A stretch of DNA of 47,174 nucleotides from Methanobacteriota archaeon (GCA_016845825.1 JAERSJ010000108.1:1-47174), one strand, 5' to 3'. Positions 1 to 35,574 are shown, counted from the stretch's first letter. Program-made: numbers and translations. Notes: a model not told the origin generated them from the letters alone.

Positions 1-2233
1 TATCAGAAATATCGATATCAATTGCATCTGATTTCGCATCATAAATCATCGAGTTTGATAGGCTTATTTCACTCGAATACAAAATATGAATAAGATCATC
101 ATAGTTAACATTATTGGAAATGCTAAGGTTAGACATATCGACCCTTTTAGAAGAATAAATAGAGAACATCCCAGTAAATACATACCCATCAAAAGTGCCA
201 CCACTACCGCCTGACATATTTGTATATTTAAAAGTCGAATCACTAGTTCCCTCACCAACGAGAGCTACAACTCCCCACGGATGTTCTCCAGCTCCAGCTC
301 TTATAAATTTAATATTTTTTTCTTGAGACCCAATAGATTTAACTCTATTTTTAAAAATAACTGATGCATCTGGGCCCAATTCGATGATTGTACCGGGCAA
401 TATAGTAATCGGCTGGTCAATGATCACTAGCTTCTCGATATAGACCGTACCCTGCCAAACCAATTCTTCGACTTCGGGTGCAAGATTCAACGGCGTATTA
501 CCTATTGCGCTGGAGTACTTTTTAAGGTCTATATCTCTCTCAGAAAGCTTAAATTCATTAGACCCAAAAAACATGACAGATACTTCTGTAACTGGAGCCG
601 CTTCATCAAGTAAGAATGAAAATATTGTGGGTTTTATTTCGAATCCAACACCAGCTTTAAACGTTGTTATCCGTGACCTATCATCTTGAGGCCTTATTCT
701 ATTTGAGGTCAAAGCAATATCAAATATAGAGCATCCATTCTGATCTACTGTACCTTCAAATAGAAGGGAGTCTTGGCTCGCTATCCAAAGCCGCTTGGGC
801 TGCGCACCGACAATTGAGCATACTTTTATTTTGTTAGTAGGTGTATAGGCGTCAATGACAAGATCTAACCTATCCCCAGTTTGCCTCCAAGAGACTAATT
901 TGGGTGATTCAAGACCTCTCTTAAGTTCACTCTCAATAAAATCTATTCTTTGCAAAAGCTTTTTGAATTCACGTTCCATAGCGCCATCAAACATCAAGCT
1001 CTTATCAAACTCATTTGTAAGGGCAAATTGAACGTGAGACGGATCATCTCTCCATGACTGCTTTATGAATTCAAAGATACGGGAAGCCTCTTTTCTTATT
1101 TCGCTATAGAAGTCCTTCTCAATAAGACTGTTCAGTATTTTATACTTTTCATAAAGGAAACTGGAGTTGTTGGTATAAACCTCGGTTAAAGCATGTGCAG
1201 CATTGTCCATTATAAATGGCTCTGTAACCAGTAAGCGGGATTTTGTATCATTGAAAATTGTGTCAAAAGCTATAGGATAAACTTCGCCTCGCCAGGGATC
1301 ACTGATAAGGTACATATTGTTTGCTTCATAGTTGTGCCAAGACTGCATAATAGTTTCATATGCAGAGAATCGGGCCCACCGCTCCACGTTAGCAATCTTT
1401 TTTAGCTTCTGTAATTTCGAGAGATCATTTACAGAGGACCTTGTTAAAGTCAAAAATTCTTCTAGATCAGAGTAATCAGACTCAGCCCGAGCATTGAACA
1501 CAGCTCTTTTTTCCCACAAATATGGGTTATTAAAAAGGTCGTTATCCTGATTAAGTGGCTTGTCTGTTCTGGAGGGAGTGCCTTTATATACGTTAACAGG
1601 CATGGAGCCAGTCATTCTTAAGAAGTTTTCATCTATATGCTGAGTCTCTAGATACAGCCCCTGGTACTTATCATTAATATACAGTTCCACAAATTGGTAC
1701 TTTGGAACTGAAATATTCATCCGCTGAGCTATGTAGTAACCCAAATAGGTATTGATGAGGGCAGTGTCTCTAGGTAAAGAATAATTGAACACCCTCATTC
1801 CATCTTTTAAATTGCTTTTCTTTCTTTTAATTCTCCAGGACTTTTTATCATGCAACCAATTATTTGGGTTATCTCCTCTGTGCTTGACACTTATTTTTTT
1901 TAGTTCACCTGCGTCAACGATAAGACCATCAACCCACTCTTTAACTGAGAGTGGAAGTTTCGCTACTAACTTCTTTTGGTTCTTCTCTGATATGTATAAC
2001 CGTACTTTTTCGACATTAGTGCTATGTGGCCGACGAATTGACTTATAAGACTTTTCGAAAGAACTAAGGACATCCATTTCAACAGAATTATATTCTCCGA
2101 GTGACTGTCCTTCTAAAATATACACTGACTTCCATAAAGCGCCAATTGAGTTAACCGAGCCCACTAGAAAAGCTATCAACACAATAATCAGCACAGATAG
2201 ACCAGTTCTTTTTTGTTGTTTTGAGAGAGTCAC
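1..2233 (-). CDS. CotH-family atypical kinase-like protein with N-terminal membrane anchor and C-terminal beta-helix-like repeats; 3' end runs off the window (not in the ORF track because it has no in-window stop)
   Basis: Manual minus-strand translation from GTG (2233-2231, 1 nt after the upstream stop) stays open to base 1 (~744 codons). N-terminus VTLSKQQKRTGLSVLIIVLIAFLVGSV is a TM anchor. CotH-like motifs: VKHRGDNPNNW..KKSWRIKRKK, LPRDTALINTYLGYYIAQRMNISVPKYQFVELYINDKYQGLYLETQHIDENFL, WHNYEANNMYLISDPWRGEVYPIAFD. Distal part (GGSGGTFDGYVF.., SNLSISNNVNYDD.., YDAKSDAIDIDISD) looks like parallel beta-helix turns. Confidence 0.75.
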   Translation of the reverse strand, partial: MTLSKQQKRTGLSVLIIVLIAFLVGSVNSIGALWKSVYILEGQSLGEYNSVEMDVLSSFEKSYKSIRRPHSTNVEKVRLYISEKNQKKLVAKLPLSVKEWVDGLIVDAGELKKISVKHRGDNPNNWLHDKKSWRIKRKKSNLKDGMRVFNYSLPRDTALINTYLGYYIAQRMNISVPKYQFVELYINDKYQGLYLETQHIDENFLRMTGSMPVNVYKGTPSRTDKPLNQDNDLFNNPYLWEKRAVFNARAESDYSDLEEFLTLTRSSVNDLSKLQKLKKIANVERWARFSAYETIMQSWHNYEANNMYLISDPWRGEVYPIAFDTIFNDTKSRLLVTEPFIMDNAAHALTEVYTNNSSFLYEKYKILNSLIEKDFYSEIRKEASRIFEFIKQSWRDDPSHVQFALTNEFDKSLMFDGAMEREFKKLLQRIDFIESELKRGLESPKLVSWRQTGDRLDLVIDAYTPTNKIKVCSIVGAQPKRLWIASQDSLLFEGTVDQNGCSIFDIALTSNRIRPQDDRSRITTFKAGVGFEIKPTIFSFLLDEAAPVTEVSVMFFGSNEFKLSERDIDLKKYSSAIGNTPLNLAPEVEELVWQGTVYIEKLVIIDQPITILPGTIIELGPDASVIFKNRVKSIGSQEKNIKFIRAGAGEHPWGVVALVGEGTSDSTFKYTNMSGGSGGTFDGYVFTGMFSIYSSKRVDMSNLSISNNVNYDDLIHILYSSEISLSNSMIYDAKSDAIDIDISD

Positions 2234-2234
2234 T

Positions 2235-3230
2235 TTAAGAATCGCAAGAGGTGGAATTATTAAGAGCTAATTTTTTAATCGTTGCTTCAATTACGACCTT
2301 ATCCGCTAAGTGATCGACAATACCCGGCAACTCAAAAAAAATATTCTCTCCCCTAGGGTTCATCGAAATAACGCTACCATCGATAAAGTAACCAGTTTCA
2401 GGGTAGAGAGAAATAGCATCTTCTTTGTAAGAGCGAAAAAGTCGGCCCTCTGAATAAAGTTGTATATTGTGAAAAGACACTTCTAATCCGCCACCTACGG
2501 CCAATCTTAAAGATGGTGAAATTAGCTGATTTTGACCTCCAAGTATAAATTCATATTTTGTCCGCTCACCCAACTGGACACCTTCATTCAAAAATAAATC
2601 TCGAACATTATCTTTCGAAAACTCCAGCGCCAATCTTCTAAAACCAATACCAAGAAGCGTTGACGACTTAGACTCTTTATAGTCTCCAAATTGCGCACTC
2701 TTGTATGCAGCGCACCATGCTTTCTTATCCTCTGTATCACTGGATTTTCGAACTATAATATTCGCCAATTGGAAAATACGCTGGTCTGAGGGAAGAATCA
2801 TCATTGCCTTATCAAGATAGCTTAAAGATTTTTCTACGTCTTTAAATTGGTAAGCACTTGCCAACATGATATTAATATCTATATGCCTCGGATTTAAAAA
2901 ATAAACTTTTTCTAAAAGATCAATAAATCTTTCTCGCTCTTCCCTTAAGACAGCCACCTCATATGCTTTCTTAACATTTTCCAACAGGCCTGGTGTGAGT
3001 CGATTGTTTTGTCCGCCATAAGAATTTGCTAAATCATATTGCCGATACAGCCATGGTAAGACTCTATCGAAATCGCGAGTAACAAGCCCACCCTTCATCG
3101 ACTGCATAAACGCAAACTCAGGAAAGTGTATGATCCCTGTAAAAATTATATGGCGTGCTTTAGGTTGCGCTAACAATGTAAGCATGCCTAGAAATACCGT
3201 AATAAATATTATTAAAATTGACTTTCTCAT
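2235..3230 (-). CDS. Exported hypothetical protein (signal peptide, TPR-like helical middle, beta-rich C-terminus); function unknown
   Basis: ORF track, 331 aa. N-terminus MRKSILIIFITVFLGMLTLLAQP resembles a signal peptide. ATGA start/stop overlap with the upstream gene. No family recognised by eye. Confidence 0.5.
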   Translation of the reverse strand: MRKSILIIFITVFLGMLTLLAQPKARHIIFTGIIHFPEFAFMQSMKGGLVTRDFDRVLPWLYRQYDLANSYGGQNNRLTPGLLENVKKAYEVAVLREERERFIDLLEKVYFLNPRHIDINIMLASAYQFKDVEKSLSYLDKAMMILPSDQRIFQLANIIVRKSSDTEDKKAWCAAYKSAQFGDYKESKSSTLLGIGFRRLALEFSKDNVRDLFLNEGVQLGERTKYEFILGGQNQLISPSLRLAVGGGLEVSFHNIQLYSEGRLFRSYKEDAISLYPETGYFIDGSVISMNPRGENIFFELPGIVDHLADKVVIEATIKKLALNNSTSCDS

Positions 3231-4213
3231 CTAGACACACCAAATAAAGTTTGTGCTGAATATTCGCTTGGAGGAACCTCGGAAAGTAACGATTCACCCC
3301 TAAAAAACCTGATAACTTCTTGCGTTGCTTCTATTTCCATACTGGATCTACAATCTACTGTCATTGAACCCATATGCGCAGTATTAATACAATTATCGCA
3401 ATACGACAGTTTTCCAAAATATGGCTCTTGTTCATAAGTATCTATAGCTGCACCCCCAATAATTCCATCCTCGAGGGCATTAAATAAGTCATCTTCGTTT
3501 ATTATCCCGCCTCTCGAAGTATTAATGATATAGGCAGATTCCTTCATCAACCTGAGTTGATCTTTCGTTATCATATTGTATGTTTTGTTAGTTAACGGTA
3601 CATGAAGGGAAATGATATCTGAGTTTGCATAAATATGTTCTTTACTGCAAACAGTAACATGGTCTCCGAAACCCTGTAAATTATCATTAATATCATTGAT
3701 AAAAATATTTTTCGAGCCAAAGCCAATGAGGTGATTTATAACCCTACGTCCAATTCGCCCACCTCCAATAATCCCTATATTAATTTGCGATAGCCTACAG
3801 CCAAAATACCTCTCCCATTTGCCGTTAAGGAAATCGGTATTCGACTTAGTAATAGATCTTGCTAATGAGAGCATTAAACCTATTGCTAACTCCGCCACAG
3901 CTGGCGCGGGCGCGTCAGGGGTGTATGATACCTTGACTTTATTCCTTTTAGCTGCACTTAAATCGACAGAGTCCAGGCCGATACCGACGCGAGATATAAA
4001 CCGTAGATTCTTTCCACGATCAAAAACTTCCTGACCTATCTCTTCTGTGCCTGCGATTATAGCATCGAAATCCGTTATTAATTCAGCTAGCTCTCCAGGC
4101 TGAAGCTTTCTATTAAGTGGGTTTATAACATATTCGATATGGTTCTCATCAAGAAGATCTAAAGGTTGAGAATTCATATTTCCAAAAGGTATTGTTGTCA
4201 CCAAAACTTTCAT
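3227..4213 (-). CDS. D-isomer-specific 2-hydroxyacid dehydrogenase (phosphoglycerate-dehydrogenase-like), NAD-dependent
   Basis: GIIGGGRIGRRV Rossmann motif, SRGGIINEDDL, and a catalytic-His region TAHMGS. Confidence 0.8.
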   Translation of the reverse strand: MKVLVTTIPFGNMNSQPLDLLDENHIEYVINPLNRKLQPGELAELITDFDAIIAGTEEIGQEVFDRGKNLRFISRVGIGLDSVDLSAAKRNKVKVSYTPDAPAPAVAELAIGLMLSLARSITKSNTDFLNGKWERYFGCRLSQINIGIIGGGRIGRRVINHLIGFGSKNIFINDINDNLQGFGDHVTVCSKEHIYANSDIISLHVPLTNKTYNMITKDQLRLMKESAYIINTSRGGIINEDDLFNALEDGIIGGAAIDTYEQEPYFGKLSYCDNCINTAHMGSMTVDCRSSMEIEATQEVIRFFRGESLLSEVPPSEYSAQTLFGVSR

Positions 4214-4225
4214 ATCAATCGATCC

Positions 4226-5659
4226 TTAGGTGCATGTATTATTAACAGCGACCGAGATCAAATATTCATATATTCGCTTGGATACATGCGAGTCTGAATA
4301 ACAATAATCACTATTTTTAATTATTTTTTGAGTAGATTCGACCCTAGGAGGGGCAAGAATACATCGCTTTAAATTTTTATAGTCGCTTATCACATTTTCG
4401 TCTGCATGGACAAACTGATTGATAAAAGGATTCCCTTTATCTGGATCTAAAAAAATAACATTTAATCCATGTCCTGCCAGCTCATAACCCATACTCGAAC
4501 CATAGGTAATGATAAATTTTGACCGGTACGCCAACTCGTAACTATCGATATTTTTCTCTAAATATGTAATACCGCTGCCCTCTATGATCTCCAACTCTTT
4601 TTTATCAAAAATCCAACTAGGGTGATGCTTTATTGCTATACGCAAGTTTTGTGACTCACTCGCGAGCTTAACTAACCACGCAACAGATTTGTAATAACCT
4701 CTCCAGTCAGTTCTTGAAGAAGTTATGGCATTTATCCCTACAAACAACACATCAATGCTTGGACTCTTCTTCAGAGTAGCTGTATCTAATTTGCGTATAG
4801 ATTTTTCCATAGCAAATGACCCAACTGGAAAAACATGATCTACCCTCCCTCCAAGAGACAGCGCATCTTGCAACGTTTTATCGCCATAGGAGAAAAAAAT
4901 ATCAATGTCATAGAACAATGCTAGACCATCATGTTGAACGATATTTTTCTGAACACATGCTGCCACAACACCACCAGACTGTTTAAACAAATGATTCTTT
5001 AACGCATTAGTTCTACCTAAATTTCTATCTTGGATCATATATTTGGCAGAAAAAATCTTGAAAAGAGAGTAGTAATATAAATAATCATTAATAAAGAATG
5101 AATGCAGATGAATCAGATTTATATTTAGCCTAAAGGAATACCAAACCAAAAAAACAAGATCCCTAAAAAAGAATCTGAGACTGCCACGCAGCAAAAGACT
5201 CCTATCATAGCCCTTTAAAATCTCACGAGAAATGACAACACTGGTATCTGATTTAATATTCCTAGATTTAGCAACGTAAACAGTTTGCGGGGATGTAAAC
5301 TCCTGCTCCAATGAATACCATCTATCAAGCTCATTCTGCTGTTGAATATCATCAATCAATAATGAAAACTTTTGACTCTTCCCTATTATTTTCTTTGAAA
5401 ATACAAAAACTGAAAGCATAAGCCCAAGATATTTGATGATGGATACAATTAGATAATTTAAGGAAAGAGCCCGGTTAAATTTAGATAACTTCAAATCATA
5501 GTTAGAAGCTATTCTTTGTTTTATATACTGTGAACTTACCTTATGCGGGACACCAAATCTGTCTGAGTAAAAAGAACCAATCTCCTCTCCAACCTGATCG
5601 GTAAACATAGAGGTAATTTTTAATTCCAAAATTTTTACGGTCGCAAAACTTTTACTCAT
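4226..5659 (-). CDS. Membrane-anchored putative TagF-like phosphotransferase / GT-B-fold transferase
   Basis: 477 aa with one hydrophobic helix (LNYLIVSIIKYLGLMLSVFVFS). C-terminal IAIKHHPSW ... FIITYGSSMGYELAGHGLNVIFLDPD resembles the K-HP ... ITDYSS ... P-I-F pattern of CDP-glycerol glycerophosphotransferases. By-eye resemblance only. Confidence 0.35.
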   Translation of the reverse strand: MSKSFATVKILELKITSMFTDQVGEEIGSFYSDRFGVPHKVSSQYIKQRIASNYDLKLSKFNRALSLNYLIVSIIKYLGLMLSVFVFSKKIIGKSQKFSLLIDDIQQQNELDRWYSLEQEFTSPQTVYVAKSRNIKSDTSVVISREILKGYDRSLLLRGSLRFFFRDLVFLVWYSFRLNINLIHLHSFFINDYLYYYSLFKIFSAKYMIQDRNLGRTNALKNHLFKQSGGVVAACVQKNIVQHDGLALFYDIDIFFSYGDKTLQDALSLGGRVDHVFPVGSFAMEKSIRKLDTATLKKSPSIDVLFVGINAITSSRTDWRGYYKSVAWLVKLASESQNLRIAIKHHPSWIFDKKELEIIEGSGITYLEKNIDSYELAYRSKFIITYGSSMGYELAGHGLNVIFLDPDKGNPFINQFVHADENVISDYKNLKRCILAPPRVESTQKIIKNSDYCYSDSHVSKRIYEYLISVAVNNTCT

Positions 5660-5690
5660 TCTAACATCTCCCTAACCCTAGCCTAGAATG

Positions 5691-6155
5691 CTAGTGATCA
5701 CTTCCGACGTTAACTTTGATTGTAACTTTTTTAATAAACTCTGCAGTACCGTCACAATGTTTAGGAGAATGCCCGTCCTTTTCAAAAAAAATGGCGAAAA
5801 TACCATTTCCAATGTCAGCATATGTTGATTGGCTATGTGGACTTGTGAAATAAGTTCGGTCCTCTTCGTCTTGATATGGGACTTCTGTATCCATACCTTC
5901 AATCGGCGACCACAAAACTTTTTCTATTCCATAAATTGGGTACTGTATATCTATTACTCTCTTATGAGACTCAAATAGAATACTGCTTTGATCTGACGTC
6001 ATGTACTCCTCAACAATTGCTTTGACGTTATCATTTATAGTGTAAACACCTAATTCGACATCAGGTTTCATGTCCTTTAAAAACAAAAGGCCCTTATAGA
6101 TATCAGGCGATAGATTCTTATAAATCTCTATATTGCTGAGGGTGTCTATTATCAT
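5691..6155 (-). CDS. YhcH/YjgK/YiaL (DUF386, NanQ-like) cupin, sialic-acid anomerase family
   Basis: Aligns by eye with E. coli YhcH: [21 protein letters not shown] vs [47 protein letters not shown] vs GMFAVFMPGEPHKPGC..EIKKVVVKV. Confidence 0.7.
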   Translation of the reverse strand: [154 protein letters not shown]

Positions 6156-6182
6156 TCTATATTATCCAATAATATCGGTAAA

Positions 6183-7142: not shown

Positions 7143-7170
7143 TTTACTTACTGACCTTTACAAGTTGGCT

Positions 7171-7845
7171 TTAATTATCGTTCTTAGCGAATAGACGTTT
7201 AAACATTAATTCGCAAAAATCAAAATCTTCTTGAGTATCAATATCCCAAGAACTTAACTTATCCATATAATAGAAACTGGGTGAACTCCCGACACAAGAG
7301 CCCCACTTAATCATATCAGTTCTTTTGAGAATATTTATCGCAAAGGTTAAAGAACATAACCCATGAAGATCTTGAGATCTTGGCCAAGGATTTGGAACAA
7401 AATTGACGGGTACGCCATTGTAAAAAATATTTTCTTGGACATTAATAGCACTCAGAAGACAGTCATAACTAGTTTCCATCTCACGATATAACTCTACTGC
7501 TTTAGAATAAACATGTGAATCCGATAGAGGATTTGTCGCGTTTATCCAAGCAATATTATCACCCTCAATCTCAGATGCGATAAAAGAATACACTTCGCTC
7601 ATCGGGATGTCGCTTGTTGAGTACTTAGGGTCACGTTCATGAATATCAAATCCATTAGCGATCGCAATATCCAAGACTTTCGGGCTCTCAGACGAGACAA
7701 TTAATTTATCAAAACCTTCAGCTCTGGATAGCTGATCTAGCTTTACTTCTAGTAAAGATTTGCCATGAAACTCTCTTAAATTTTTATTTGGAACTCTCTC
7801 CGAAGTCCCCTTGATAGGAATCAAACCAACAATACTACCAATCAT
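7171..7845 (-). CDS. Acylneuraminate (nonulosonate) cytidylyltransferase family, NeuA/LegF-like
   Basis: N-terminal GLIPIKGTSERVPNKNL matches the CMP-sialate synthetase type motif (..PARGGSKR.P.KN.). 224 aa. Confidence 0.7.
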   Translation of the reverse strand: MIGSIVGLIPIKGTSERVPNKNLREFHGKSLLEVKLDQLSRAEGFDKLIVSSESPKVLDIAIANGFDIHERDPKYSTSDIPMSEVYSFIASEIEGDNIAWINATNPLSDSHVYSKAVELYREMETSYDCLLSAINVQENIFYNGVPVNFVPNPWPRSQDLHGLCSLTFAINILKRTDMIKWGSCVGSSPSFYYMDKLSSWDIDTQEDFDFCELMFKRLFAKNDN

Positions 7846-19937: not shown

Positions 19938-22690
<2,753 letters not shown>

Positions 22691-26709: not shown

Positions 26710-26722
26710 ATTGCTCTCATAA

Positions 26723-28027: not shown

Positions 28028-28034
28028 TTATAAG

Positions 28035-29333: not shown

Positions 29334-29393
29334 AAAACTTTAATTCCTATCTAACAGTAACATTGAATCAACCAGATGACCTTGACAATCGAA

Positions 29394-30680
29394 TTACAAT
29401 ATAACCTTATTAGAGATTAATATTCGATAATAAATCAAATACAGCCACCACAAATTAAAAATAGAACTAAACATCAAAAACAACAGCGCTGAAACAGCAT
29501 AAGAATCTACAACTACTGTCGAACTGTCTCTGTTAAAAAATAGCCGCTTTGCTGAACGAAATTGGGCGTGGAACACACATAATACAAAAAACAAACCCAT
29601 GGCTCCGAAAGGAATCAAAAAATCTACATAAGTATTATGGGGACTAAGTTTCCAACCCCTCCCAACCTTAATTTGGAAACTCTTAATCTCTTTAGCTAAT
29701 AAACTATTTAAATCGCCATCTTTAGTGTCACCATCTGAAAATTTAGCTTTAATAGTATTTTCATTCATGAGGAACGTCTGACTACCCGGGCCCGCACCAA
29801 AAGGAAAAACCTCTTGGAATAACTCATAGGAACGTATACTTATAGTTATCCTATGAAGCGTAGACTTATATGAATCAAAACTCCCAGACACAATATTTTG
29901 ATATTGCGCAATAGCGAAAAACAAAGTAGCGGGCAGAAGTAACGTTAGAACAATGGATTTTCTAAAATTGAATTCAAAGGGTGACGCACCAAAACCAGTT
30001 CGAAACCAAAGGATTGCTAGAATGATTAATAGCGAGCCAATACTCGTCCTATCTCCGGTCGCAACTATTCCAACCACAAACAAAAGTACTGCGGCAAAAA
30101 GCTTTGCTGGAGTAGCTTTCGGATTTAATAAAACATGAGCAACGAAGCCTGCAATTATAAGCTGCCCAGTAATGATATATGAATTGATACCCCCATTGTA
30201 TCTATTTCCAGATAGAGCATCTGATGATAAAAAACTCCAACCCAATGGCATCATCAAGAAATACAAAAGAGATCCAAATACAATAACGTATGAGAAATTT
30301 TTTATAATTGAAACACTCTTGATTATTCGGTCAATCGGACTAATTATTATGGCTATAGATGCAGTTATTATCGATAGAAACTTAGCGAAACTAGCCATAC
30401 TCCACCAAGAAGAACTCTCCTTGGAGAAAATTTCTACCTCAAAAAGCAAGAAGATAAATGATGCATAAGTTAACAGTGCAAAATGGAGTAAAAACACGCT
30501 CTTGTTCGCAGAATTTAAACCATGCCCTGAAGCCAGTCTTGAGACTATATAAAAACTGCCATACGTCAAAAACAGCGTATAGGTAAAGTACAAAGGCAAT
30601 CCAAAATTCGTTAAAAACAGGTTGCTAAAGTATATTATTACAAAGACTGGTGCTCCTGAGAGCCCCGATAGTTTTACCAT
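29394..30680 (-). CDS. O-antigen polymerase/ligase family (Wzy_C-type) polytopic membrane protein
   Basis: About 10 hydrophobic segments, ATGDRTSIGSLL, and a loop followed by SPHNTYVDFLIPFGAMG. Confidence 0.7.
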   Translation of the reverse strand: MVKLSGLSGAPVFVIIYFSNLFLTNFGLPLYFTYTLFLTYGSFYIVSRLASGHGLNSANKSVFLLHFALLTYASFIFLLFEVEIFSKESSSWWSMASFAKFLSIITASIAIIISPIDRIIKSVSIIKNFSYVIVFGSLLYFLMMPLGWSFLSSDALSGNRYNGGINSYIITGQLIIAGFVAHVLLNPKATPAKLFAAVLLFVVGIVATGDRTSIGSLLIILAILWFRTGFGASPFEFNFRKSIVLTLLLPATLFFAIAQYQNIVSGSFDSYKSTLHRITISIRSYELFQEVFPFGAGPGSQTFLMNENTIKAKFSDGDTKDGDLNSLLAKEIKSFQIKVGRGWKLSPHNTYVDFLIPFGAMGLFFVLCVFHAQFRSAKRLFFNRDSSTVVVDSYAVSALLFLMFSSIFNLWWLYLIYYRILISNKVIL

Positions 30681-30693
30681 ACGTTCTTACAGA

Positions 30694-30939
30694 CTATTTT
30701 TCAGTTTTATTGAGAATAATTTCGACTATAGATTCGATTGAATCAAAATCGTTAATATTTTCTTCGGTAATAAATATCCCGTAACTCACTTCTATTTCCG
30801 AAAGGATCGCCATATACGCCAAAGAGTCCCACTGAGGCAGATTTTGCGTTGAGGAAGACTTATCTACTATGGCACATCTAGTTACATTTTTAACAATTTT
30901 TACAACATCTTTAGTAAGTTCGTCATCTTTATGATTCAT
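30694..30939 (-). CDS. Acyl carrier protein
   Basis: QWDSLAYMAILSEIE carries the DSL phosphopantetheine-attachment serine. I prefer ATG at 30939 over the track's TTG at 30951. Overlaps the upstream stop. Confidence 0.75.
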   Translation of the reverse strand: MNHKDDELTKDVVKIVKNVTRCAIVDKSSSTQNLPQWDSLAYMAILSEIEVSYGIFITEENINDFDSIESIVEIILNKTEK

Positions 30940-32071
30940 AAATAGCACCAATGTTAATATAGTTTACTTCATCATTCCCCACGTAACCAATATGAGAATC
31001 CTCTAGTACTATTATATGTTTAATATTCAAATTGGTGATTCTATCAGGACTCACGATTGGAATTCTACCATTACACAACGATCTACCTATTTTCCCATTA
31101 TCACTGTCTACAGCAAACGAAACTCGGTCAATTAAGAAAGGGTAATTATACAAAAATAGGGTTGATGCGCCGCCGCCACCGAAGATGGCGATAGCTCCAT
31201 TCTCAATCTTATTGATTAAAGTCTTTAACTTTGAAAGACATTTTCTGATGTTTGAATCGACAATCGATAAATGCTCGAGGCTATGCATTATGTGATTTGG
31301 AGGTAGAGCACTGGCTCCTAAACGAAACTCTACCAACAATACCTCATCCTTTTTAATGACATCAACACAACGAAATCCATGCCGCATCATCAAACTCATC
31401 AGACTAGTCTGTGTAAATAAACTGATATGCATATGAAAAATTGTGTAATGCGGTCGAAGCTCACTTTCAAGACCAAAATTAGGAACTTCGATAATGATTT
31501 TACCTTCACTATTCAGTAATCTCTTTGCTTTTTTTAAAGCCATGCTAGGATCGTTAAAGTGCTCTAACACATGAAACATGAAGATATAATCAAAATCACT
31601 CTCTGTAATCTCGGCTTCAACGAAGTCACCGATAAACACCCCATCCACTTCAGCCTGGACTATTTTGTCTACGTTGAAATCAGCAACCCATTTCTCCGAA
31701 CTATCTGGTAAAAGCCCCAAAAATGTGTTTCGCCCGCCCCCAACCTCGAGAGCTTTGGTTTTCTCAAACTTTTGTTTGTCATCAGCAGTTAACAACGTTA
31801 ATCGCTCATATTTCTCCTGACGATTCTCTACATTAAATGCTTCATCCCGGTAAATTTCTGATATTGTCTCGTCATCCATATTCTGTAATTGCATGTAGCC
31901 ACAGTCACTGCAAATGTATACGTGGATATCTTTTAATATCGTCCGTTTCATTTCTGGTAATGGCCAAATATAGAGAGGAAATTTATAACGAGCACTACAG
32001 ACTTCAATCGAACTCGATTTACACGCTCGACAATTAGGTAACGACACTTCTATTCCACCATTTTTCAGCAT
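30929..32071 (-). CDS. SAM-dependent methyltransferase of the NDP-sugar C-methyltransferase architecture (N-terminal Zn ribbon + MT core + C-terminal Methyltransf_14-like domain)
   Basis: CRACKS...CSDCGYMQL, ALEVGGG, FHVLEHFNDP; C-terminal AIFGGGGASTLFLY...VDSDNGKIGRSLCNGRIPIVSP. Confidence 0.65.
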   Translation of the reverse strand: MLKNGGIEVSLPNCRACKSSSIEVCSARYKFPLYIWPLPEMKRTILKDIHVYICSDCGYMQLQNMDDETISEIYRDEAFNVENRQEKYERLTLLTADDKQKFEKTKALEVGGGRNTFLGLLPDSSEKWVADFNVDKIVQAEVDGVFIGDFVEAEITESDFDYIFMFHVLEHFNDPSMALKKAKRLLNSEGKIIIEVPNFGLESELRPHYTIFHMHISLFTQTSLMSLMMRHGFRCVDVIKKDEVLLVEFRLGASALPPNHIMHSLEHLSIVDSNIRKCLSKLKTLINKIENGAIAIFGGGGASTLFLYNYPFLIDRVSFAVDSDNGKIGRSLCNGRIPIVSPDRITNLNIKHIIVLEDSHIGYVGNDEVNYINIGAIYES

Positions 32072-32077
32072 AAACTA

Positions 32078-33091
32078 CTATGCCTGTCCACTGATACGGA
32101 GGGATATAAAATTAGTTAAATCAAAGAATCTGTTAACTGAATTTTCATTATCAAAATACGCCTGAAGATATAGATTGCTCCCTCTTATAAAACTATTTTC
32201 TTTAATAATAATCGAAGAGTAGCTAGAATTTTGGTGCGCTGCGGGACCTGTGTCAGAGTTTTGCACAGCATATAACCCTTTCAGATCCCCGATCTCACAT
32301 TCACTCTCCAAAATACTCCAAACCTCTTCATCCAAGGGGGACTCTAGAGTATACCGATAATCGATTATAGATACTCCAGTGTAGGGAATCAGCGTATAGT
32401 TGACATTGAAATTTTCATCCGTAACACACTCCAGTAATTTAGGTGCTACTTGCGACAAAGTGCATCCTTTTCGTTTCATCGCAACTTTTTCTAATCCTGG
32501 GGTTTGGATAAATCCGTTATGGAGTTGATATTCTGGGACATTATGGATTACGTTTACATCAGAAGAAGAAACTCCAAACAGTTTATCTAAGCGACTTGTC
32601 AACTGCACATAAGCATTGACGGTGCATGATCCATAAGAAATTACATCACTATCTGGGCTATAATCTAAGTGATTAAACCCATATACCAACATCTGGTCAG
32701 CGTTCATCGAAGTAGCTGAAATCAAGACCTTTTTAGTTCTTCCTTTCTTTAAAGACCGAGCATTATTCGCATCAGTGTATTTTCCTGAACACTCTAGGAA
32801 AATATCAGGTGAGCCAAGCCACTCAATATTATCACTATGGTCATTAGTATACTTAATTTTGATGGAGTCATTAAATACCAAGAATTCACCATCACTAGAT
32901 ACTGAAAAATTTTTATGTATCTCAACGTAAGGATCATTTTTAATAATCCCTAAAGCATGATCTATACTCAACATATCATCGTTGATATATTTCAGTTCAA
33001 ATTCACTTTTCTCTAATGAATTTAAATAATAACTCAAAAGATGTAAACCAAACCTACCAAACCCATTAATCCCACAAACTACTTTTGACAT
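32078..33091 (-). CDS. Divergent glyceraldehyde-3-phosphate-dehydrogenase-family protein (not housekeeping GapA)
   Basis: GINGFGRFG (canonical INGFGRIGR), SYGSCTVNA (canonical SCTTNC, catalytic Cys kept), AYFDNENS (canonical WYDNE). The rest is strongly diverged. Confidence 0.7.
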   Translation of the reverse strand: MSKVVCGINGFGRFGLHLLSYYLNSLEKSEFELKYINDDMLSIDHALGIIKNDPYVEIHKNFSVSSDGEFLVFNDSIKIKYTNDHSDNIEWLGSPDIFLECSGKYTDANNARSLKKGRTKKVLISATSMNADQMLVYGFNHLDYSPDSDVISYGSCTVNAYVQLTSRLDKLFGVSSSDVNVIHNVPEYQLHNGFIQTPGLEKVAMKRKGCTLSQVAPKLLECVTDENFNVNYTLIPYTGVSIIDYRYTLESPLDEEVWSILESECEIGDLKGLYAVQNSDTGPAAHQNSSYSSIIIKENSFIRGSNLYLQAYFDNENSVNRFFDLTNFISLRISGQA

Positions 33092-33135: not shown

Positions 33136-35064
33136 TCAGCCTCTAACTGAACTCGAAATTGCCTCTTGAGCAGAATCAATGTCAAATTTTGTATTATTAA
33201 AGCTAATCATTCGACTTTCTGCGAACTCTACACTCTCCCCAATCAAACTGGATAACTTAGTCAGATAACTGGCCATCTGGTCGTCAGTGCCATGAGCCTT
33301 GAAAACCTCCAGTCGTTTAATTGAGCCCAACTTCAATAGCAAGTCTTCTGGCTCAATTTCATCACTACGCGACGCGACCAGTCGATTATCTTTAAATGCA
33401 ACTAGATAATCTCCAATAGCGAGATAATCCATACACCCTTCCAGCAGGTGCTCTACCGCTTGGCGCGGAGTAGAAATAGTTGCTATGCCATGCCTGTTAA
33501 AGCTGGTGTTCAGTAGCACCGGGATACCCGTCAATTTCTTAAATTCGTTAATCAATTCCCAATACAGAGAATTCTCTGATTTTCTAACCGAATGAACTCT
33601 TGATGTACCATCAACATGAACAGCTGAAGGAACTTTATCAACCATTGTGCTTTTCATATTAAATGCAACTTGCATATACGGGGAATAATGTTCCTGCTCC
33701 ACCCAATTGGAGCACTCTTCCTCCAGTATGGACGGAGCATAAGGCATGAACCAATCACGTTTTTTCAGCAACTGATTGATTTTTTCTTTAGATCTAATAT
33801 CTCTTGGGTCCGCCACGAGAGATCGCGCACCGAGTGAACGCGGTCCAAACTCTGCCTTCCCTTGAAACCATCCAACCGATGCGCCCTCACTAAGTTTTTT
33901 TGCGACAACTTTTGTGATATCAGAACATGAGGTATAAACCAGTCTATGCCTAACTAGTACCTCTTCAATTTCTGTCGACGAGAAAGACGGACCTATAAAT
34001 GCTGACAACACTTCCGCTGGCTTCCAGTTAGAGCGATTCTTGACGTGTAAGGCTGCCCCCAATGAAAGTCCAGAATCCGACGGCCCAGAAGGGAAGTAAA
34101 CATTATCAAAACCCGCATCTAAGAGCGCTTTATTTAATGCGACGTTTTGGAACAATCCCCCACTAAACACAATATTTTTGCTTTCAGTCTCCTCTCGCAG
34201 TAATTCAACCAATTTAAGAACAGACTCCTGCAGAATTTGCTCCCCTGTGGCAGCAATATCATGTGGTAGATATTCAATACCAAAACGCAGCATATTAGTA
34301 TCACTTGGATATTGACTAAATATTTTAGTTCTGTCATAGGAATCAGCACGAATTTTAGCCAAATTAACTTGAGTTTGACTAAAACGCTTTCGATCAAATG
34401 TTGCGCCACCTTCCTTGGTTATTGAAATCAGCTTTGAAATTTCTTTCTTTAAATCTGGCTGGACTTCTCCGTAAGACGCAAGGCCGGAGGTTTTACCATT
34501 ATCATCACCCGAAAAACCCAAGGAATCAGTTAACAGCGAATGAAAATTAGCAATAGTATTCACCCCTGTCGCCTCAAATTTTACATTAAATTTATTATTT
34601 ACAAAGTCCCCAAATACGTAACCACGGGGATCTCCAAAATCTCCCCCTCCATCCATACATAAAAAGGCGCATTCAGAAAACCCTGAACCGTAAGCCGCCA
34701 AAGAGGCATGACTCAACTGATGATCAACAAATTCAACATGCTCATAAAACCACCTTTCAAAATCATCTAATGTTCCGGTATATGCCTTAAAAAACCAACT
34801 AAAGAATGTATGATAATCCTTAAGTTTAATTTGAGATTTTGGAGTAGGAAAAACCCATTTTTCTACTTGATCGGGAGTTATACCTAGCTCCTTAAAACCA
34901 AGCATTAGGGTTCTCTCCGGAAATTTGGATGTCCCGTCATTCTTAACTGTGGTGACCTTTCCTTCCTCGTAGGAAAAAACTTGCTCGCCATTTAAAATAC
35001 TTGCATTAAATTCATGTCTATCCTGAACATCAAAAGGGCAAGGATATAAGGACGCGATTATCAT
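33136..35064 (-). CDS. NodU/CmcH-family carbamoyltransferase
   Basis: HQLSHASLAAYGSGF, FGPRSLGARSLVADPR, LLNTSFNRHG. I prefer ATG 35064 (GGAG 9 nt upstream) to the track's TTG 35079, which overlaps that SD. Confidence 0.85.
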   Translation of the reverse strand: MIIASLYPCPFDVQDRHEFNASILNGEQVFSYEEGKVTTVKNDGTSKFPERTLMLGFKELGITPDQVEKWVFPTPKSQIKLKDYHTFFSWFFKAYTGTLDDFERWFYEHVEFVDHQLSHASLAAYGSGFSECAFLCMDGGGDFGDPRGYVFGDFVNNKFNVKFEATGVNTIANFHSLLTDSLGFSGDDNGKTSGLASYGEVQPDLKKEISKLISITKEGGATFDRKRFSQTQVNLAKIRADSYDRTKIFSQYPSDTNMLRFGIEYLPHDIAATGEQILQESVLKLVELLREETESKNIVFSGGLFQNVALNKALLDAGFDNVYFPSGPSDSGLSLGAALHVKNRSNWKPAEVLSAFIGPSFSSTEIEEVLVRHRLVYTSCSDITKVVAKKLSEGASVGWFQGKAEFGPRSLGARSLVADPRDIRSKEKINQLLKKRDWFMPYAPSILEEECSNWVEQEHYSPYMQVAFNMKSTMVDKVPSAVHVDGTSRVHSVRKSENSLYWELINEFKKLTGIPVLLNTSFNRHGIATISTPRQAVEHLLEGCMDYLAIGDYLVAFKDNRLVASRSDEIEPEDLLLKLGSIKRLEVFKAHGTDDQMASYLTKLSSLIGESVEFAESRMISFNNTKFDIDSAQEAISSSVRG

Positions 35065-35574
35065 AATTGCTAACTCCAAATTTATCTAAAAGAGATTACT
35101 AAAACGGGTAAAATTGACAATATCTAATAGCTCAGCTACCCACTCCAATCAGACTAAGTCACTTTCAACTGACTCAGCGTTATCAAATACGCAATATCTT
35201 GCATTCCAAATATGGCAACCCAGCTATTACTCTCACTTTGCACCCAAACGGGAGGCATTTTTAGAGCTTATTCCATGGGATCTAACGAACTCTCTTCCCG
35301 CCCGCAAGGTAGAAATATTAACGATTGCACCACGACCTGTTAAACCAAAAGTCAGGAGCGCCAAAAGAGCAATAACCAAGTGTTTTTGAGCATACTCTTA
35401 CTCGGGATATTGGTAGGCCTCTAAAGCTATCTCGAAAAACCTATATTTTACAAGAACTTCGTGCTTTCAGCCATTAATTTTGCAATCAACAAACCGACAA
35501 TCGTTACTTTTAATATTTACGTTAGGCTCACCCCGTCGTAACAACTTACTTGTAACACGTATCTGTATAAACCC

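Follow-up and report, generated by a model that had tools for sequence, protein, structure and literature searches.

Gene content and composition of the block

The window analysed here, 47,174 nt of DNA, is an entire contig, and the locus is therefore cut within its CotH gene, with the left boundary of the island lying beyond the window. Positions 1–35079 hold 32 genes, 31 complete and one, the CotH gene, cut by the left end; all of them, like the junction and backbone genes described below, lie on the minus strand. Neighbouring genes overlap by 4, 4, 8, 14, 19 or 23 nt, and the remaining gaps are at most 79 nt, with a gene for an 80–81-aa ACP-like protein (30694–30939) filling what would be a 248-nt gap. 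The overlap of this gene with that of a methyltransferase is 8–11 nt, as set by the ACP start chosen (30936 for the longest ORF, 30939 as called in L001, in which the same reads were assembled a second time). On the plus strand, ORFs reach 90 aa or more only within minus-strand genes (20494–20781, 24463–24741, 28510–28845 and 30172–30468). The original prediction had described about 33 minus-strand genes with tiny gaps or overlaps and no opposite-strand gene; the arrangement holds, and the count is 32. Its statement that the block is AT-richer than the flank also holds, and its spot counts on single lines (13/60, 26/60 and 32/60 G+C) are exact on recount. The G+C content is 0.375 over 1–35079 and 0.473 over 35740–47174 (37.5% versus 47%), the ranges in 500-nt windows are disjoint (0.314–0.422 in the block, 0.426–0.530 in the flank; Mann-Whitney p = 1.8e-12), and G+C at third codon positions is 0.28–0.37 in the block and 0.41–0.59 in the flank. 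These data support a surface-glycan cassette of foreign composition, with its genes tightly packed on one strand in a layout consistent with a single operon. Domain searches recovered all of the predicted NeuB, PseB, DegT, PepM, Ppd, ANL ligase, carbamoyltransferase, GAPDH-like, GMC and CotH proteins; the transaminase and ACP were found as an AEP-transaminase-like domain and a weak ACP match.

The sugar core includes PseB, an inverting UDP-GlcNAc 4,6-dehydratase (19938–20948; TIGR03589 524 bits, cut-off 408), and a PseC/LegC-like sugar aminotransferase of the DegT family (18705–19862; DegT 278 bits), which scores 212 bits with the LegC model and 211 bits with the PseC model, both under cut-off. 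The NeuB-family nonulosonate synthase (15125–16189; NeuB 243 bits plus SAF) reaches 271 bits with the NeuB model and 240 bits with the PseI model, again under both cut-offs, and is equidistant from NeuB and PseI in the PDB. The NeuB and DegT scores do not assign the sugar type. Between synthase and aminotransferase lie an RmlD-like SDR reductase (16192–17058; RmlD_sub_bind 120 bits), a KdsB/NeuA-like CTP_transf_3 cytidylyltransferase, the second of its kind (17062–17820; 126 bits), and an aldo/keto reductase (17821–18699; Aldo_ket_red 131 bits). The other CTP_transf_3 protein (7171–7845; 53 bits) resembles CMP-ulosonic-acid synthetases and is weakly PseF-like, covering the PseF model over its full length at 67 bits, under the cut-off of 206. 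A DUF386 protein of the YhcH/YjgK/YiaL type (5691–6155; Pfam DUF386 101 bits; TIGR00022 61.8 bits, cut-off 45.5) is related to sialic-acid anomerases. Domain and family searches of the block recognised no homologue of the canonical Pse steps PseH (GNAT) and PseG (hydrolase).

Several genes point to remodelling of an N-acyl group. An aminopeptidase-like polysaccharide-biosynthesis protein with DUF4910, DUF2172 and wHTH domains (13187–14479; Pfam DUF4910 316 bits; PDB 3k9t, E 5e-100) is, by analogy with Cj1295 (PMC3068675), a candidate de-N-acetylase. It is accompanied by an ANL-superfamily acyl-CoA/ACP ligase (11683–13140; AMP-binding 179 bits plus AMP-binding_C), an inositol-monophosphatase-family phosphatase (10878–11696; Inositol_P 63 bits), a conserved 132-aa protein (10487–10885) that has no significant family match and keeps its position at 63–70% identity in L083–L085, and an AAC(3)-family N-acyltransferase (9652–10485; Antibiotic_NAT 64 bits). 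The ACP-like protein has weak ACP matches (22 bits) and a DSL serine motif (WDSLAY); it is 59–62% identical in relatives, and its gene is called in L001. Both the ACP and the ANL ligase of the original prediction are thus present, but they lie 17 kb apart and are unpaired.

The phosphonate genes start with phosphonopyruvate decarboxylase, Ppd (22767–23894; TIGR03297 468 bits, cut-off 312), and an SDR of the NAD-dependent epimerase/dehydratase family (23937–24812; Epimerase 124 bits), which accompanies Ppd and PepM in both locus groups. A GMC-family FAD oxidoreductase (24873–26414; GMC_oxred_C 69 bits) is paired, as predicted, with a 105-aa protein (26392–26709) whose N-terminus, MNRRKFVSLAL, carries a Tat-like NRRKF motif; the partner gene is kept upstream of the GMC gene in L005, L006, L011 and L090. 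The next protein (26723–28027; CTP_transf_like) fuses a TagD/ECT/Fom1-type cytidylyltransferase to an AEP-transaminase-like class-V aminotransferase. Its PDB matches are TagD (1e-16), ethanolamine-phosphate cytidylyltransferase (2e-15), the Fom1 CyTase (6.5e-12) and the AEP transaminase 7e7g (2e-7), and the AEP-transaminase assignment is weak (TIGR03301 53 bits, cut-off 361). It is followed by a fusion of a cytidylyltransferase with PEP mutase, PepM/Ppm (28035–29333; TIGR02320 418 bits, cut-off 320), in which EDKKGLKKNS at residue 259 fits the EDKxxxxxNS motif. Neither LicD nor a recognised phosphonate transferase is present within the window. Taken together, the gene families support a capacity for a NeuB-family nonulosonate and a PepM/Ppd-derived phosphonate, as well as predicted acyl-carrier, ligase, methyl-transfer and carbamoyl-transfer functions.

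The remaining genes concern assembly, tailoring and late steps. The first gene of the island encodes a NodU/CmcH-family carbamoyltransferase (33136–35079; Carbam_trans_C 201 bits, Carbam_trans_N 89 bits), which starts at ATG 35064 in the gene call of L001 or at TTG 35079 in the longest ORF. A divergent GAPDH-family dehydrogenase (32078–33091; Gp_dh_N 37 bits; GAPDH-I model 109 bits, under cut-off) retains the catalytic Cys and His (GSCTVNA and VIHNV motifs). Two SAM-dependent methyltransferases are encoded, one with a Cys-rich N-terminus and a C-terminal domain of the C-methyltransferase type (30929–32071; Methyltransf_23 64 bits, Methyltransf_14 24 bits) and one at 6183–7142 (Methyltransf_23 93 bits). 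The Wzy_C-domain membrane protein (29394–30680; Wzy_C 36 bits, cut-off 31.7) has about 10 hydrophobic segments and no PDB sequence match; it is predicted to be of the O-antigen polymerase, ligase or O-oligosaccharyltransferase type, as sequence cannot separate Wzy, WaaL and PglL. No Wzx is present in the block. A half-size ABC exporter with TMD and NBD (20960–22690; ABC_tran; about 8 hydrophobic segments) has as its top match the model of PglK-type lipid-linked-oligosaccharide flippases (259 bits, under cut-off). The gene for a small GT2-family glycosyltransferase of 219 aa (14484–15143; Glycos_transf_2 61 bits) overlaps the NeuB gene by 19 nt, and this pair is kept in L005, L012, L083 and L085. 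A LIC12162-family transferase (7925–9655; TIGR04331 353 bits, cut-off 225), whose homologues carry PF27859 LIC12162, is a candidate nonulosonate transferase. The 477-aa protein at 4226–5659 has no Pfam match and 44 metagenome homologues, all unannotated; the homologue alignment reveals an invariant K-H-H at 344–346. Its AF2 model (pLDDT 89.6) matches UDP-GlcNAc 2-epimerases and TarL and TagF-like polymerases in Foldseek (TM about 0.45), and the protein is, according to this model, a member of an uncharacterised transferase family of GT-B fold. At the left end lie a D-2-hydroxyacid dehydrogenase resembling PGDH and glyoxylate reductase (3227–4213; Pfam 2-Hacid_dh_C 159 bits, under every NCBIfam equivalog cut-off) and a 331-aa protein with an N-terminal hydrophobic segment (2235–3230). 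The latter has no match in Pfam, NCBIfam or the PDB, is always found directly ahead of CotH (56–70% identity at the same position in L083–L086), and has an identical copy in two other sequencing runs. The CotH-family kinase-like protein (1–2235; Pfam CotH 73 bits; PDB CotH 5jd9, E 6e-7) has an N-terminal TM helix and a GTG start at 2233–2235, placed by alignment with homologues of 890–893 aa; its C-terminus is lost at the contig end, leaving about 744 of about 890 aa.

The junction with a conserved backbone

Upstream of the island lies a conserved backbone (35740–46916), identified with Pfam and NCBIfam and also present in L092 and L094. It has the order yjbH-wza-wzz-GT4-GT4-marR-pfkB-galU, with the island directly downstream of galU. 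YjbH passes its curated family cut-off, the Wza/SLBB exporter has 833 aa, the GT4 pair are WecA/MraY-family initiating transferases, the MarR protein is EPS-associated and the kinase belongs to the pfkB family; a 171-aa lipoprotein is also encoded. Backbone DNA matches L092, L093 and L094 at 67–92% identity as far as about 35241–35447 in the window, and homology with relatives reaches about 35160–35240, which places the right junction about 100–160 nt upstream of the island's first gene. In the junction region (35163–35739), blastn and tblastn against L092–L094 revealed degraded backbone genes, namely an 80-aa ORF in shortened form and a GT4 gene of which the two ends are left but the middle is gone. 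After galU, L092, L093 and L094 hold three different gene sets, and in clusters at 90% identity the backbone proteins have 210–365 members and the island proteins 1–3. The second assembly (L001, run SRR13374102) takes in galU together with 10 kb of island sequence, is 100% identical over 11,165 nt and supports the junction. One named GalU relative (Porticoccaceae) of 85% identity makes a marine gammaproteobacterium resembling Porticoccaceae the probable host.

Recurrence and reshuffling in marine relatives

A synteny search for the predicted gene combination recovered the full set, CotH included, in collinear order on an independent 63 kb environmental contig, and parts of it on many others. 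On the 63 kb contig, which L090 and L083 form through an identical 5030-nt overlap, 30 of the 32 island genes have a homologue, in unchanged order and at 27–82% amino-acid identity. L012 has 17 genes, from the carbamoyltransferase through GT2, at 50–79% identity, L084 has 14 island genes at 66–85% identity, and the Tara Oceans scaffolds L085 and L086 are collinear with the island. P0073, a homologue of the GT-B protein, lies on 18 contigs, and near-identical copies occur in other datasets. Beyond the point where the window ends, genes for VTC, DUF4956 and CDP-OH_P_transf proteins and further genes come after CotH in the relatives. Most island relatives have a G+C content of 31–33%, and the cassette appears to move among low-G+C marine bacteria too. 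Its gene-for-gene recurrence in ocean metagenomes marks it as a conserved, though uncharacterised, variant within a known type of locus, and the collinear recurrence of the whole set argues for co-selection of the modules.

Sub-modules are also found apart. L018-type loci hold PepM, Ppd, SDR and GMC genes with a 2HADH/CT3/GT-B/MT set and are without the NeuB/PseB core within 10 kb, L088 has the CT3/GT-B/MT and DUF4910/AAC3/ANL/ACP sets without PepM, and L094 has NeuB without PepM. Modules thus reassort between loci, and their products need not share one repeat unit. Of the proposal that the block encodes one heavily decorated repeat unit, the nonulosonate and phosphonate capacity stands, and the single unit stays conjectural.

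Proposed pathway and alternative explanations

We consider the block, with a probability of about 0.75, to be a horizontally exchanged 'glycotype' island of a surface-polysaccharide locus, a conserved multi-module cassette that acts through the pathway outlined here. We infer its steps, except for the identities of PseB, PepM and Ppd, which are shown by family thresholds. PseB and the DegT aminotransferase would convert UDP-GlcNAc to a 4-amino-6-deoxy-hexosamine, and the NeuB-family synthase would condense the freed sugar with PEP to a 5,7-diamino nonulosonate, with the SDR and aldo/keto reductases probably fixing a configuration that departs from the canonical one. The CMP-sugar could come from either CTP_transf_3 enzyme or from both. 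The Cj1295-like aminopeptidase-fold protein and the AAC(3)-like N-acyltransferase may swap an N-acetyl for an unusual acyl group supplied by the ANL ligase and ACP, possibly a methylated or carbamoylated hydroxyacyl, for instance glyceroyl; the GAPDH-like and 2-hydroxyacid dehydrogenases, the phosphatase, the methyltransferases and the carbamoyltransferase are its putative makers. PepM, Ppd and the AEP-transaminase-like domain would yield 2-aminoethylphosphonate, which the two fused TagD/Fom1-type cytidylyltransferase domains would activate to CMP-AEP. The LIC12162-family and GT-B proteins may then move CMP-activated units onto a lipid-linked acceptor primed by the backbone GT4 enzymes, and the PglK-like ABC protein would flip the lipid-linked glycan, to be polymerised by the Wzy_C protein or ligated by it to lipid A-core or protein. 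The Tat-partnered GMC oxidoreductase and the membrane-anchored CotH-like kinase would act after export. The CDP-alcohol phosphotransferase, seen only in relatives, after CotH, VTC and DUF4956, is the best candidate for phosphonate attachment.

It is possible, if speculative, that the island serves general protein O-glycosylation, in which the PglK-like flippase and a PglL-type O-oligosaccharyltransferase (the Wzy_C protein) would place a short phosphonylated, nonulosonate-capped glycan on surface proteins instead of building an O-antigen or capsule polymer. The top match of the ABC protein is PglK, the Wzy_C domain is common to PglL/PilO oligosaccharyltransferases, and glycosyltransferases are few (GT2, LIC12162 and the GT-B protein). 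In addition, phosphonate was found in the protein fraction of Prochlorococcus SB, where a gene of the Wzy_C type immediately precedes pepM (Acker et al., 10.1101/2020.11.04.368217). However, the backbone that carries the island encodes Wzz, Wza and YjbH, proteins for polymer length control and export, and the Wzy, WaaL and PglL functions are inseparable by sequence here. This reading is a sub-variant of the glycotype island and not an exclusive rival.

We find it unlikely that the block is a mosaic of co-located independent pathways with separate products, such as a nonulosonate glycan, a phosphonolipid or phosphonoglycan unconnected with it, and a CotH/VTC system distinct from both. The sub-modules found apart in L018-type loci, L088 and L094 favour such a mosaic, CDP-alcohol phosphotransferases beside AEP genes typify predicted phosphonolipid clusters (PMC8942020), and CotH, polyP polymerase and DUF4956 form a portable accessory set in unrelated pel operons (bioRxiv 10.1101/768473). 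Yet 30 genes hold their order and orientation despite 20–70% protein divergence and 6 G+C points between genomes, the phosphonate genes are flanked by those for the Wzy_C protein and the flippase, and the whole block has just one of each.

A small-molecule cluster for a phosphonate antibiotic or acylated aminosugar, with the ABC protein as exporter, is very improbable: the ANL ligase, ACP, NodU-type carbamoyltransferase, C-methyltransferase-like domain and PepM/Ppd are known from secondary-metabolite clusters, and fosfomycin biosynthesis provided the first examples of Fom1-type CyTase-Ppm fusions (PMC6697681), but the domain search of the block found no PKS, NRPS or condensation domains, the block instead encodes Wzy_C, LIC12162, GT2, NeuB, PseB and CMP-sugar synthetases, and it lies inside an EPS/O-antigen export locus where relatives hold other sugar gene sets. 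We give equally little credence to a mis-join of a low-G+C block and a higher-G+C flank by assembly or binning error, which the abrupt composition step at about 35.1–35.7 kb and the low G+C of most island relatives, unlike the flank, might suggest, against the independent assembly of SRR13374102 across the junction, decayed remnants of the kind expected from an old replacement event, and backbone relatives that all change to variable sugar genes at the same site.

Comparison with known systems

The glycotype island shares conserved flanks, a low-G+C variable centre of sugar genes, content that varies among close relatives, and assemblies that break there with hypervariable O-antigen and capsule loci and marine replacement flexible genomic islands. 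There is no difference in principle, but the island is unusually long (>35 kb) and rich in tailoring chemistry. In relatives, a polysaccharide operon closes with CotH, directly followed by VTC and DUF4956, an arrangement that resembles the Gram-positive pel set (bioRxiv 10.1101/768473), whereas the setting here is Gram-negative, marine and non-Pel, and the window holds CotH only.

With the canonical pseudaminic-acid pathway (PseB, C, H, G, I, F) the block has in common PseB above the equivalog cut-off and DegT, NeuB-family and CTP_transf_3 proteins. It differs in having no recognisable GNAT PseH or PseG-type hydrolase, a synthase that scores higher with the NeuB than with the PseI model (both under cut-off), and additional RmlD-like and aldo/keto reductases and a second cytidylyltransferase. 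PseB with a PseC-type aminotransferase, a Cj1295-family protein and an adjacent N-acetyltransferase also characterise Cj1293–Cj1297 of Campylobacter jejuni NCTC 11168. ACP and methyltransferase genes are presumably close by in that flagellin-glycosylation locus as well. Cj1295 is needed for Pse5(2,3-di-O-methylglyceroyl)7Ac in C. jejuni (PMC3068675), and the likeness of the 13187–14479 protein to it rests on a common Pfam architecture and PDB 3k9t. There, flagellin is glycosylated in the cytoplasm via Maf proteins, whereas the block has no Maf genes and combines a flippase and a Wzy_C protein in an export locus.

Regarding the phosphonate genes, the fusion class of PF01467 cytidylyltransferase and Ppm with EDKxxxxxNS has already been described (Rice et al. 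2019, PMC6697681), as has a second PntC (Li and Horsman 2022, PMC8942020). The block resembles this Pnt pathway in that fusion, in a second cytidylyltransferase nearby and in an AEP-type Ppm/Ppd/aminotransferase core. Its second cytidylyltransferase is, however, a PF01467 domain fused to the aminotransferase, whereas the characterised PntC-AEPT uses LicC/PF12804. Nonulosonate coupling was not found in these two Pnt inventories, and the terms 'sialic', 'NeuB' and 'nonulosonic' are absent from PMC8942020.

The marine pepM islands of Prochlorococcus SB and SAR11 (HTCC7217, RS40) likewise combine PepM and Ppd in a laterally exchanged island with capsule or glycan-assembly neighbours and a Wzy_C/O-OTase gene directly upstream of pepM (Acker et al., bioRxiv 10.1101/2020.11.04.368217). 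Those islands are described with Pdh (HEP route), whereas an AEP-transaminase-like fusion is found here together with the NeuB/PseB core, the acyl-remodelling set, the carbamoyltransferase and CotH; sialic or pseudaminic acid is not mentioned by Acker et al. (10.1101/2020.11.04.368217). The original prediction did not recognise the combination as a described locus type, and neither a characterised locus nor a solved glycan for these genes turned up in the searchable literature, but the combination is not confined to this genome. In the cassette, a sialic-acid-like sugar pathway stands beside a phosphonate pathway in one recurring marine locus, of a kind already outlined by Acker et al. and Rice et al.

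Gene organization and composition of the island

Across the whole 47,174-nt NCBI contig that forms the window, all sizeable open reading frames (ORFs) lie on the minus strand, and the few plus-strand ORFs of at least 90 aa are each nested within minus-strand genes. Positions 1–35079 hold 32 genes, of which 31 are complete and one, coding for a CotH protein, is cut by the left contig end. The original prediction had counted about 33 minus-strand genes separated by tiny gaps or overlaps; the strand and the spacing stand, and the count becomes 32. The genes overlap by 4, 4, 8, 14, 19 and 23 nt, the methyltransferase and acyl carrier protein (ACP) genes additionally by 8–11 nt, and after placing the small ACP gene at 30694–30939 the intergenic gaps are 79 nt or less. 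That the block is AT-richer than its flank was correctly noted, down to three exact spot counts: the block has a G+C of 0.375 against 0.473 for the flank, with disjoint ranges in 500-nt windows (p = 1.8e-12), and third-position G+C is 0.28–0.37 and 0.41–0.59, respectively. Every gene family that had been named was detected in the block, whereas the proposed pairing of the ACP with an ANL ligase fails, the two genes being 17 kb apart.

A single transcript for the island is plausible, since all 32 genes are co-directional and no terminator-like site was seen in the island's intergenic gaps by scans that run at background level. Over the window, promoter and terminator site counts were not above those of shuffles, so that internal transcription units are neither defined nor excluded. 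Rfam gave no match at the gathering threshold in the whole window nor at permissive E-values in 34900–35900, and hence no JUMPstart/ops-type leader; the leader sequence GTGGGTAGCTG differs from the ops consensus by two mismatches when compared by eye, and is not counted as an ops element.

Backbone, junction and host

From the right window end towards the island, the backbone (35740–46916) encodes YjbH (PF06082, 557 bits, above its curated threshold), then a 171-aa lipoprotein, an 833-aa Wza/SLBB exporter, Wzz, two WecA/MraY-family GT4 proteins, an EPS-type MarR, a PfkB kinase and GalU. The gene for the C-terminal 86 aa of a further protein (46913–47173, minus strand) is cut by the right end; nearly all of this sequence consists of Thr/Pro/Ala low-complexity repeats (TPTPTPTP..., TTTTTDEAATTTT...), it has no family match, and its stop codon overlaps the yjbH start. 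The GT4 genes at 38294–39400 and 39514–40641 (minus strand) are tandem paralogues, present besides a decayed third copy, and the strong AT skew of this region (0.20–0.28) is consistent with T-rich codons for membrane proteins on the coding strand. The sole terminator-like site in the backbone intergenic gaps, an 11-bp stem hairpin with a U-rich tail (36664–36688, minus strand), is in the gap that separates the pfkB-family gene from galU.

In three relatives sharing the backbone (L092, L093 and L094) its DNA is 67–92% identical to the window down to approximately 35241–35447; past that point, after galU and a GT4 gene, they carry three different sets of sugar genes. This combination of a conserved flank and variable gene content in close relatives is seen on the right side; on the left, the window ends inside the island. 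The 660-nt 'intergenic' leader at 35080–35739 contains decayed backbone genes, with remnants at 35163–35739 (minus strand): an 80-aa ORF that follows galU in relatives is shortened by a premature stop, and a third GT4 initiating-transferase gene has kept aa 22–72 and aa 342–369 and lost its middle. Clustered at 90% identity, backbone proteins have 210–365 members and island proteins 1–3. From the shared backbone followed by divergent sugar genes, the decayed remnants and the contrast in cluster size, the island bears the sequence signature of a replacement-type flexible island, that is, a putative glycotype locus.

A second, independent assembly of the same run (SRR13374102) reads from galU into the island with 100% identity to the window, and this bridging argues against the junction being a chimera. 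A phage or mobile element was rejected as an explanation for the block, as tRNA, integrase and repeats are all absent at the junction.

GalU relatives at 81–94% identity abound in marine metagenomes, and one of them (85% identity) bears the name of a Porticoccaceae MAG; the host of the island may be uncultured. Most contigs with close GalU relatives are just 1–5 kb long, so that assemblies appear to break at the galU site, as expected beside a hypervariable region.

Predicted nonulosonate core and N-acyl remodelling

We infer all functions beyond family membership from sequence. PseB exceeds its cut-off (TIGR03589, 524 bits, cut-off 408). The DegT protein scores 211 bits with the PseC model and 212 bits with the LegC model (both cut-offs ~420), and the NeuB-family synthase scores 271 bits with the NeuB model (cut-off 400) and 240 bits with the PseI model (cut-off 340) and is equally distant from NeuB and PseI in the PDB; NCBIfam and PDB scores thus do not discriminate NeuB from PseI or LegC from PseC. 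A 224-aa CMP-synthetase-like protein reaches 67 bits with the PseF model (cut-off 206). At the domain level, the island encodes NeuB with SAF, DegT, two CTP_transf_3 proteins, an RmlD-like SDR and an aldo/keto reductase (AKR), together with an AAC(3)-type acyltransferase (Antibiotic_NAT), the ANL ligase, an IMPase-family phosphatase, a 2-hydroxyacid dehydrogenase and a NodU-type carbamoyltransferase. A YhcH-family protein scores above its curated threshold, the ACP has a weak family match with the DSL serine present, and one of the two methyltransferases has a C-terminal domain of the C-methyltransferase type. None of the 32 proteins has a GNAT or a Glyco_tran_28_C domain, the domains looked for as PseH and the UDP-sugar hydrolase PseG; the AAC(3)-type acyltransferase, the GT2 and the GT-B-fold proteins might substitute for them. 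The core would convert UDP-GlcNAc to a 4-keto sugar and on to a 4-amino sugar, and NeuB-type condensation would yield a 5,7-diamino nonulosonate for CMP activation.

By Pfam architecture, the PseB/DegT locus also includes a Cj1295-type set, namely an aminopeptidase-like DUF2172/DUF4910 protein and the Antibiotic_NAT N-acyltransferase. On these grounds, and with a match to PDB 3k9t (E-value 5e-100), the former is likened to Cj1295, whose family is covered by PMC3068675; according to that paper, C. jejuni 11168 needs Cj1295 to make its 5-N-(2,3-di-O-methylglyceroyl) pseudaminic acid. The Cj1295-like and AAC(3)-like pair is predicted to swap the N-acetyl group for an ACP-delivered acyl group. Glyceroyl is a possible candidate for this group, although on the unlikely side of even, given the glycerate-type dehydrogenases, the phosphatase, the methyltransferases and the C. 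jejuni precedent. A divergent GAPDH-family protein (32078–33091, minus strand), always encoded beside the ACP and the methyltransferase, retains the catalytic residues Cys (GSCTVNA) and His (VIHNV); conceivably it acts as a thioester-forming aldehyde dehydrogenase that passes its acyl group on to the ACP. A PDB sequence search with the 132-aa protein of the locus gave nothing useful, and permissive Pfam searches gave non-significant hints only (for this protein, Glyoxalase_4 at E 0.22).

Predicted phosphonate branch and CotH end

The PEP mutase (TIGR02320, 418 bits, cut-off 320) carries the catalytic motif EDKxxxxxNS as EDKKGLKKNS at residue 259, and the phosphonopyruvate decarboxylase Ppd scores 468 bits (TIGR03297, cut-off 312). 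A 434-aa fusion protein has a C-terminal aminotransferase domain with a weak TIGR03301 score (53 bits, cut-off 361), an E-value of 2e-7 to the PDB 2-aminoethylphosphonate (AEP) transaminase 7e7g and a visible SSCK lysine motif. Both this protein and PepM bear a PF01467 domain, which matches the Fom1 CyTase, TagD and ethanolamine-phosphate cytidylyltransferases. A predicted cytidylyltransferase is thus fused to Ppm, as in an AEP-type pathway with nucleotidyl activation, and PF01467–Ppm fusions and a second cytidylyltransferase are common in phosphonate clusters (PMC6697681; PMC8942020). The branch would run from PEP via phosphonopyruvate, phosphonoacetaldehyde and AEP to CMP-AEP. Its genes are placed mid-pathway in the nonulosonate glycan set, between the Wzy_C and flippase genes, an arrangement that is conserved across divergent marine genomes.

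Family profiles detected no phosphonate-attaching transferase of the LicD or CDP-alcohol phosphotransferase type within the window; in relatives a CDP-OH_P_transf gene sits three genes past CotH, and the window contig ends short of that position. In all the collinear relatives (L083–L086) CotH is full length (887–892 aa) and is followed, in order, by VTC (a polyphosphate-polymerase domain), DUF4956, the CDP-alcohol phosphotransferase, a 190-aa protein, an APH/RIO1-like kinase, a HAD hydrolase and a Polysacc_synt_2 dehydratase. Of the CotH, VTC and DUF4956 genes seen there, the window holds only the cut CotH gene. Since the relatives continue past CotH, the window shows just part of the cassette.

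Predicted transfer, flipping and polymerization

Predicted counterparts of the Wzy-type polymerase, of Wzz, of the outer-membrane exporter and of the initiating transferase of a Wzx/Wzy-type locus are all present: Wzy_C scores 36 bits (cut-off 31.7), and the backbone contributes Wzz, Poly_export/SLBB and two Glycos_transf_4 proteins. No Wzx of the MOP/Polysacc_synt family was found among the window proteins, and the lone multi-pass transporter is a PglK-like ABC protein, which would flip the lipid-linked glycan. The Wzy_C protein would then polymerize or ligate it; a PDB sequence search with this protein gave nothing useful, and Wzy, WaaL and PglL roles are not separable by sequence. Activated units would be transferred by the LIC12162-family protein (7925–9655, minus strand; 353 bits, cut-off 225) and by a 477-aa protein (4226–5659, minus strand). 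PDB sequence searches with the 477-aa, a 576-aa and a 331-aa protein gave nothing useful. The 477-aa protein is without a family; modelled with AlphaFold from 39 homologues (pLDDT 89.6), it adopts a GT-B fold closest to UDP-GlcNAc 2-epimerases and TagF/TarL-type polymerases, and it has an invariant K-H-H. An MpnS/HEPD-type oxygenase was rejected for this protein, there being no sequence match and the fold being GT-B. A GT2 and a GMC protein with a Tat-like partner were recognized in the island at the domain or motif level; the GMC/Tat pair and CotH would act late.

Recurrence of the cassette in marine metagenomes

The original prediction had called for a co-occurrence and synteny search. Scanning metagenomes with Ppd and then comparing all window proteins by tblastn showed that the combination is not unique to the window. 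One locus (L012) has 17 genes from the carbamoyltransferase to the GT2 in window order at 50–79% identity, and five others (L005, L006, L011, L004 and L009) have collinear parts of the cassette. A 63,084-nt contig, ena:ERZ1694383:k99_10541597, was reached via homologues of the 477-aa and ABC proteins; read as two pieces with an identical 5030-nt overlap and covered over 4673–42786, it has 30 of the 32 island genes in window order at 27–82% identity. The order is GAPDH-like, methyltransferase, ACP, Wzy_C, cytidylyltransferase–PepM, cytidylyltransferase–aminotransferase, small Tat protein, GMC, SDR, Ppd, ABC, PseB, DegT, AKR and CTP_transf_3, then RmlD-like, NeuB, GT2, DUF4910, ANL, phosphatase, 132-aa protein, AAC(3), LIC12162, CTP_transf_3, methyltransferase, GT-B protein, 2-hydroxyacid dehydrogenase, 331-aa protein and CotH. 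A closer relative (L084, G+C 0.37) shows 66–85% identity across 14 genes, Tara Oceans scaffolds share the gene order of the window, and one GT-B protein homologue occurs on 18 contigs. Searches of named reference genomes with the ABC protein gave one irrelevant match (25% identity) and none with the cassette.

Near-identical copies of window parts are found in a JGI metagenome (98% DNA identity, 12.2 kb) and in two other runs. The JGI contig (3300047382, Ga0494416_0000174), which corresponds to window 20533–32693, has shorter gene calls for a methyltransferase (321 vs 380 aa) and the Wzy_C protein (286 vs 428 aa); these reflect either genuine frameshifts in a sister strain or errors of assembly.

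Modularity and the predicted product

Sub-sets of the cassette also occur apart. Seven loci (L018, L019, L020, L022, L024, L025 and L076; G+C 0.28–0.35) form a second, lower-G+C group, which joins cytidylyltransferase–PepM, Ppd, SDR and GMC to homologues of window genes 3227–7845 (2-hydroxyacid dehydrogenase, GT-B protein, YhcH, methyltransferase and CTP_transf_3); the NeuB/PseB core is absent within 10 kb. In this group, L018 further encodes an Fe-alcohol dehydrogenase, a B12 radical-SAM enzyme, a CDP-alcohol phosphotransferase and LicD, a gene content suggestive of a variant of the hydroxyethylphosphonate (HEP) type with no nearby NeuB. Another locus, L088, keeps the CTP_transf_3/GT-B/methyltransferase and DUF4910/AAC(3)/ANL/ACP sets with radical-SAM enzymes and a sulfotransferase, and lacks PepM. 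The island is therefore built from portable modules. The single decorated repeat unit that had been proposed is weakened by this portability, whereas the strict collinearity of the modules in window-type cassettes argues for a joint product, although it is not proof. Overall, the feature is real and had been observed correctly, and its interpretation holds in part: the island is best described as a predicted hypervariable surface-glycan island with phosphonate tailoring.

A large part of the high-molecular-weight dissolved organic phosphorus in the sea consists of phosphonates, whose carrier molecules are poorly defined. We hypothesize, with a probability of about 0.3, that the product of the cassette is a surface glycan of a class not described before, an N-acyl-remodelled nonulosonate unit with AEP. 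The candidate assemblers would be the 477-aa GT-B family, LIC12162, the CotH–VTC–DUF4956 set and the Tat-partnered GMC oxidase. As the cassette is widespread in abundant marine bacteria, Tara Oceans scaffolds included, this glycan could be one of the actual molecules from which the ocean's phosphonate-bearing high-molecular-weight organic matter derives. A replacement glycotype island is moreover documented here in an abundant marine lineage and is relevant to interactions with phages and grazers.

Comparison with known systems

Targeted full-text searches, incomplete in coverage and so not proof of absence, found no locus or glycan combining phosphonate and nonulosonate, nor a description of a NeuB/PseB core, a Cj1295-type acyl set and phosphonate/CotH elements in one conserved cassette. 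Each module is individually familiar and its function predicted, yet the cassette is conserved and widespread in ocean metagenomes and includes several enzyme families with putative roles. For the Cj1295 problem, the exchange of N-acyl groups on nonulosonates, it offers candidate enzymes. The CotH/polyphosphate-polymerase/DUF4956 triad is an accessory set, of unknown function, of Gram-positive pel operons (bioRxiv 10.1101/768473). Published genomics ties pepM to glycan-assembly genes in general terms only, and the window provides a defined gene set and candidate enzymes for the phosphonate-attachment step. The original view that the combination is not a described locus type agrees with the literature found, but its kind has been described: the nearest is the marine pepM island beside glycan-assembly genes, in which pepM has a Wzy_C-type gene directly upstream in Prochlorococcus SB and in SAR11 strains (bioRxiv 10.1101/2020.11.04.368217).
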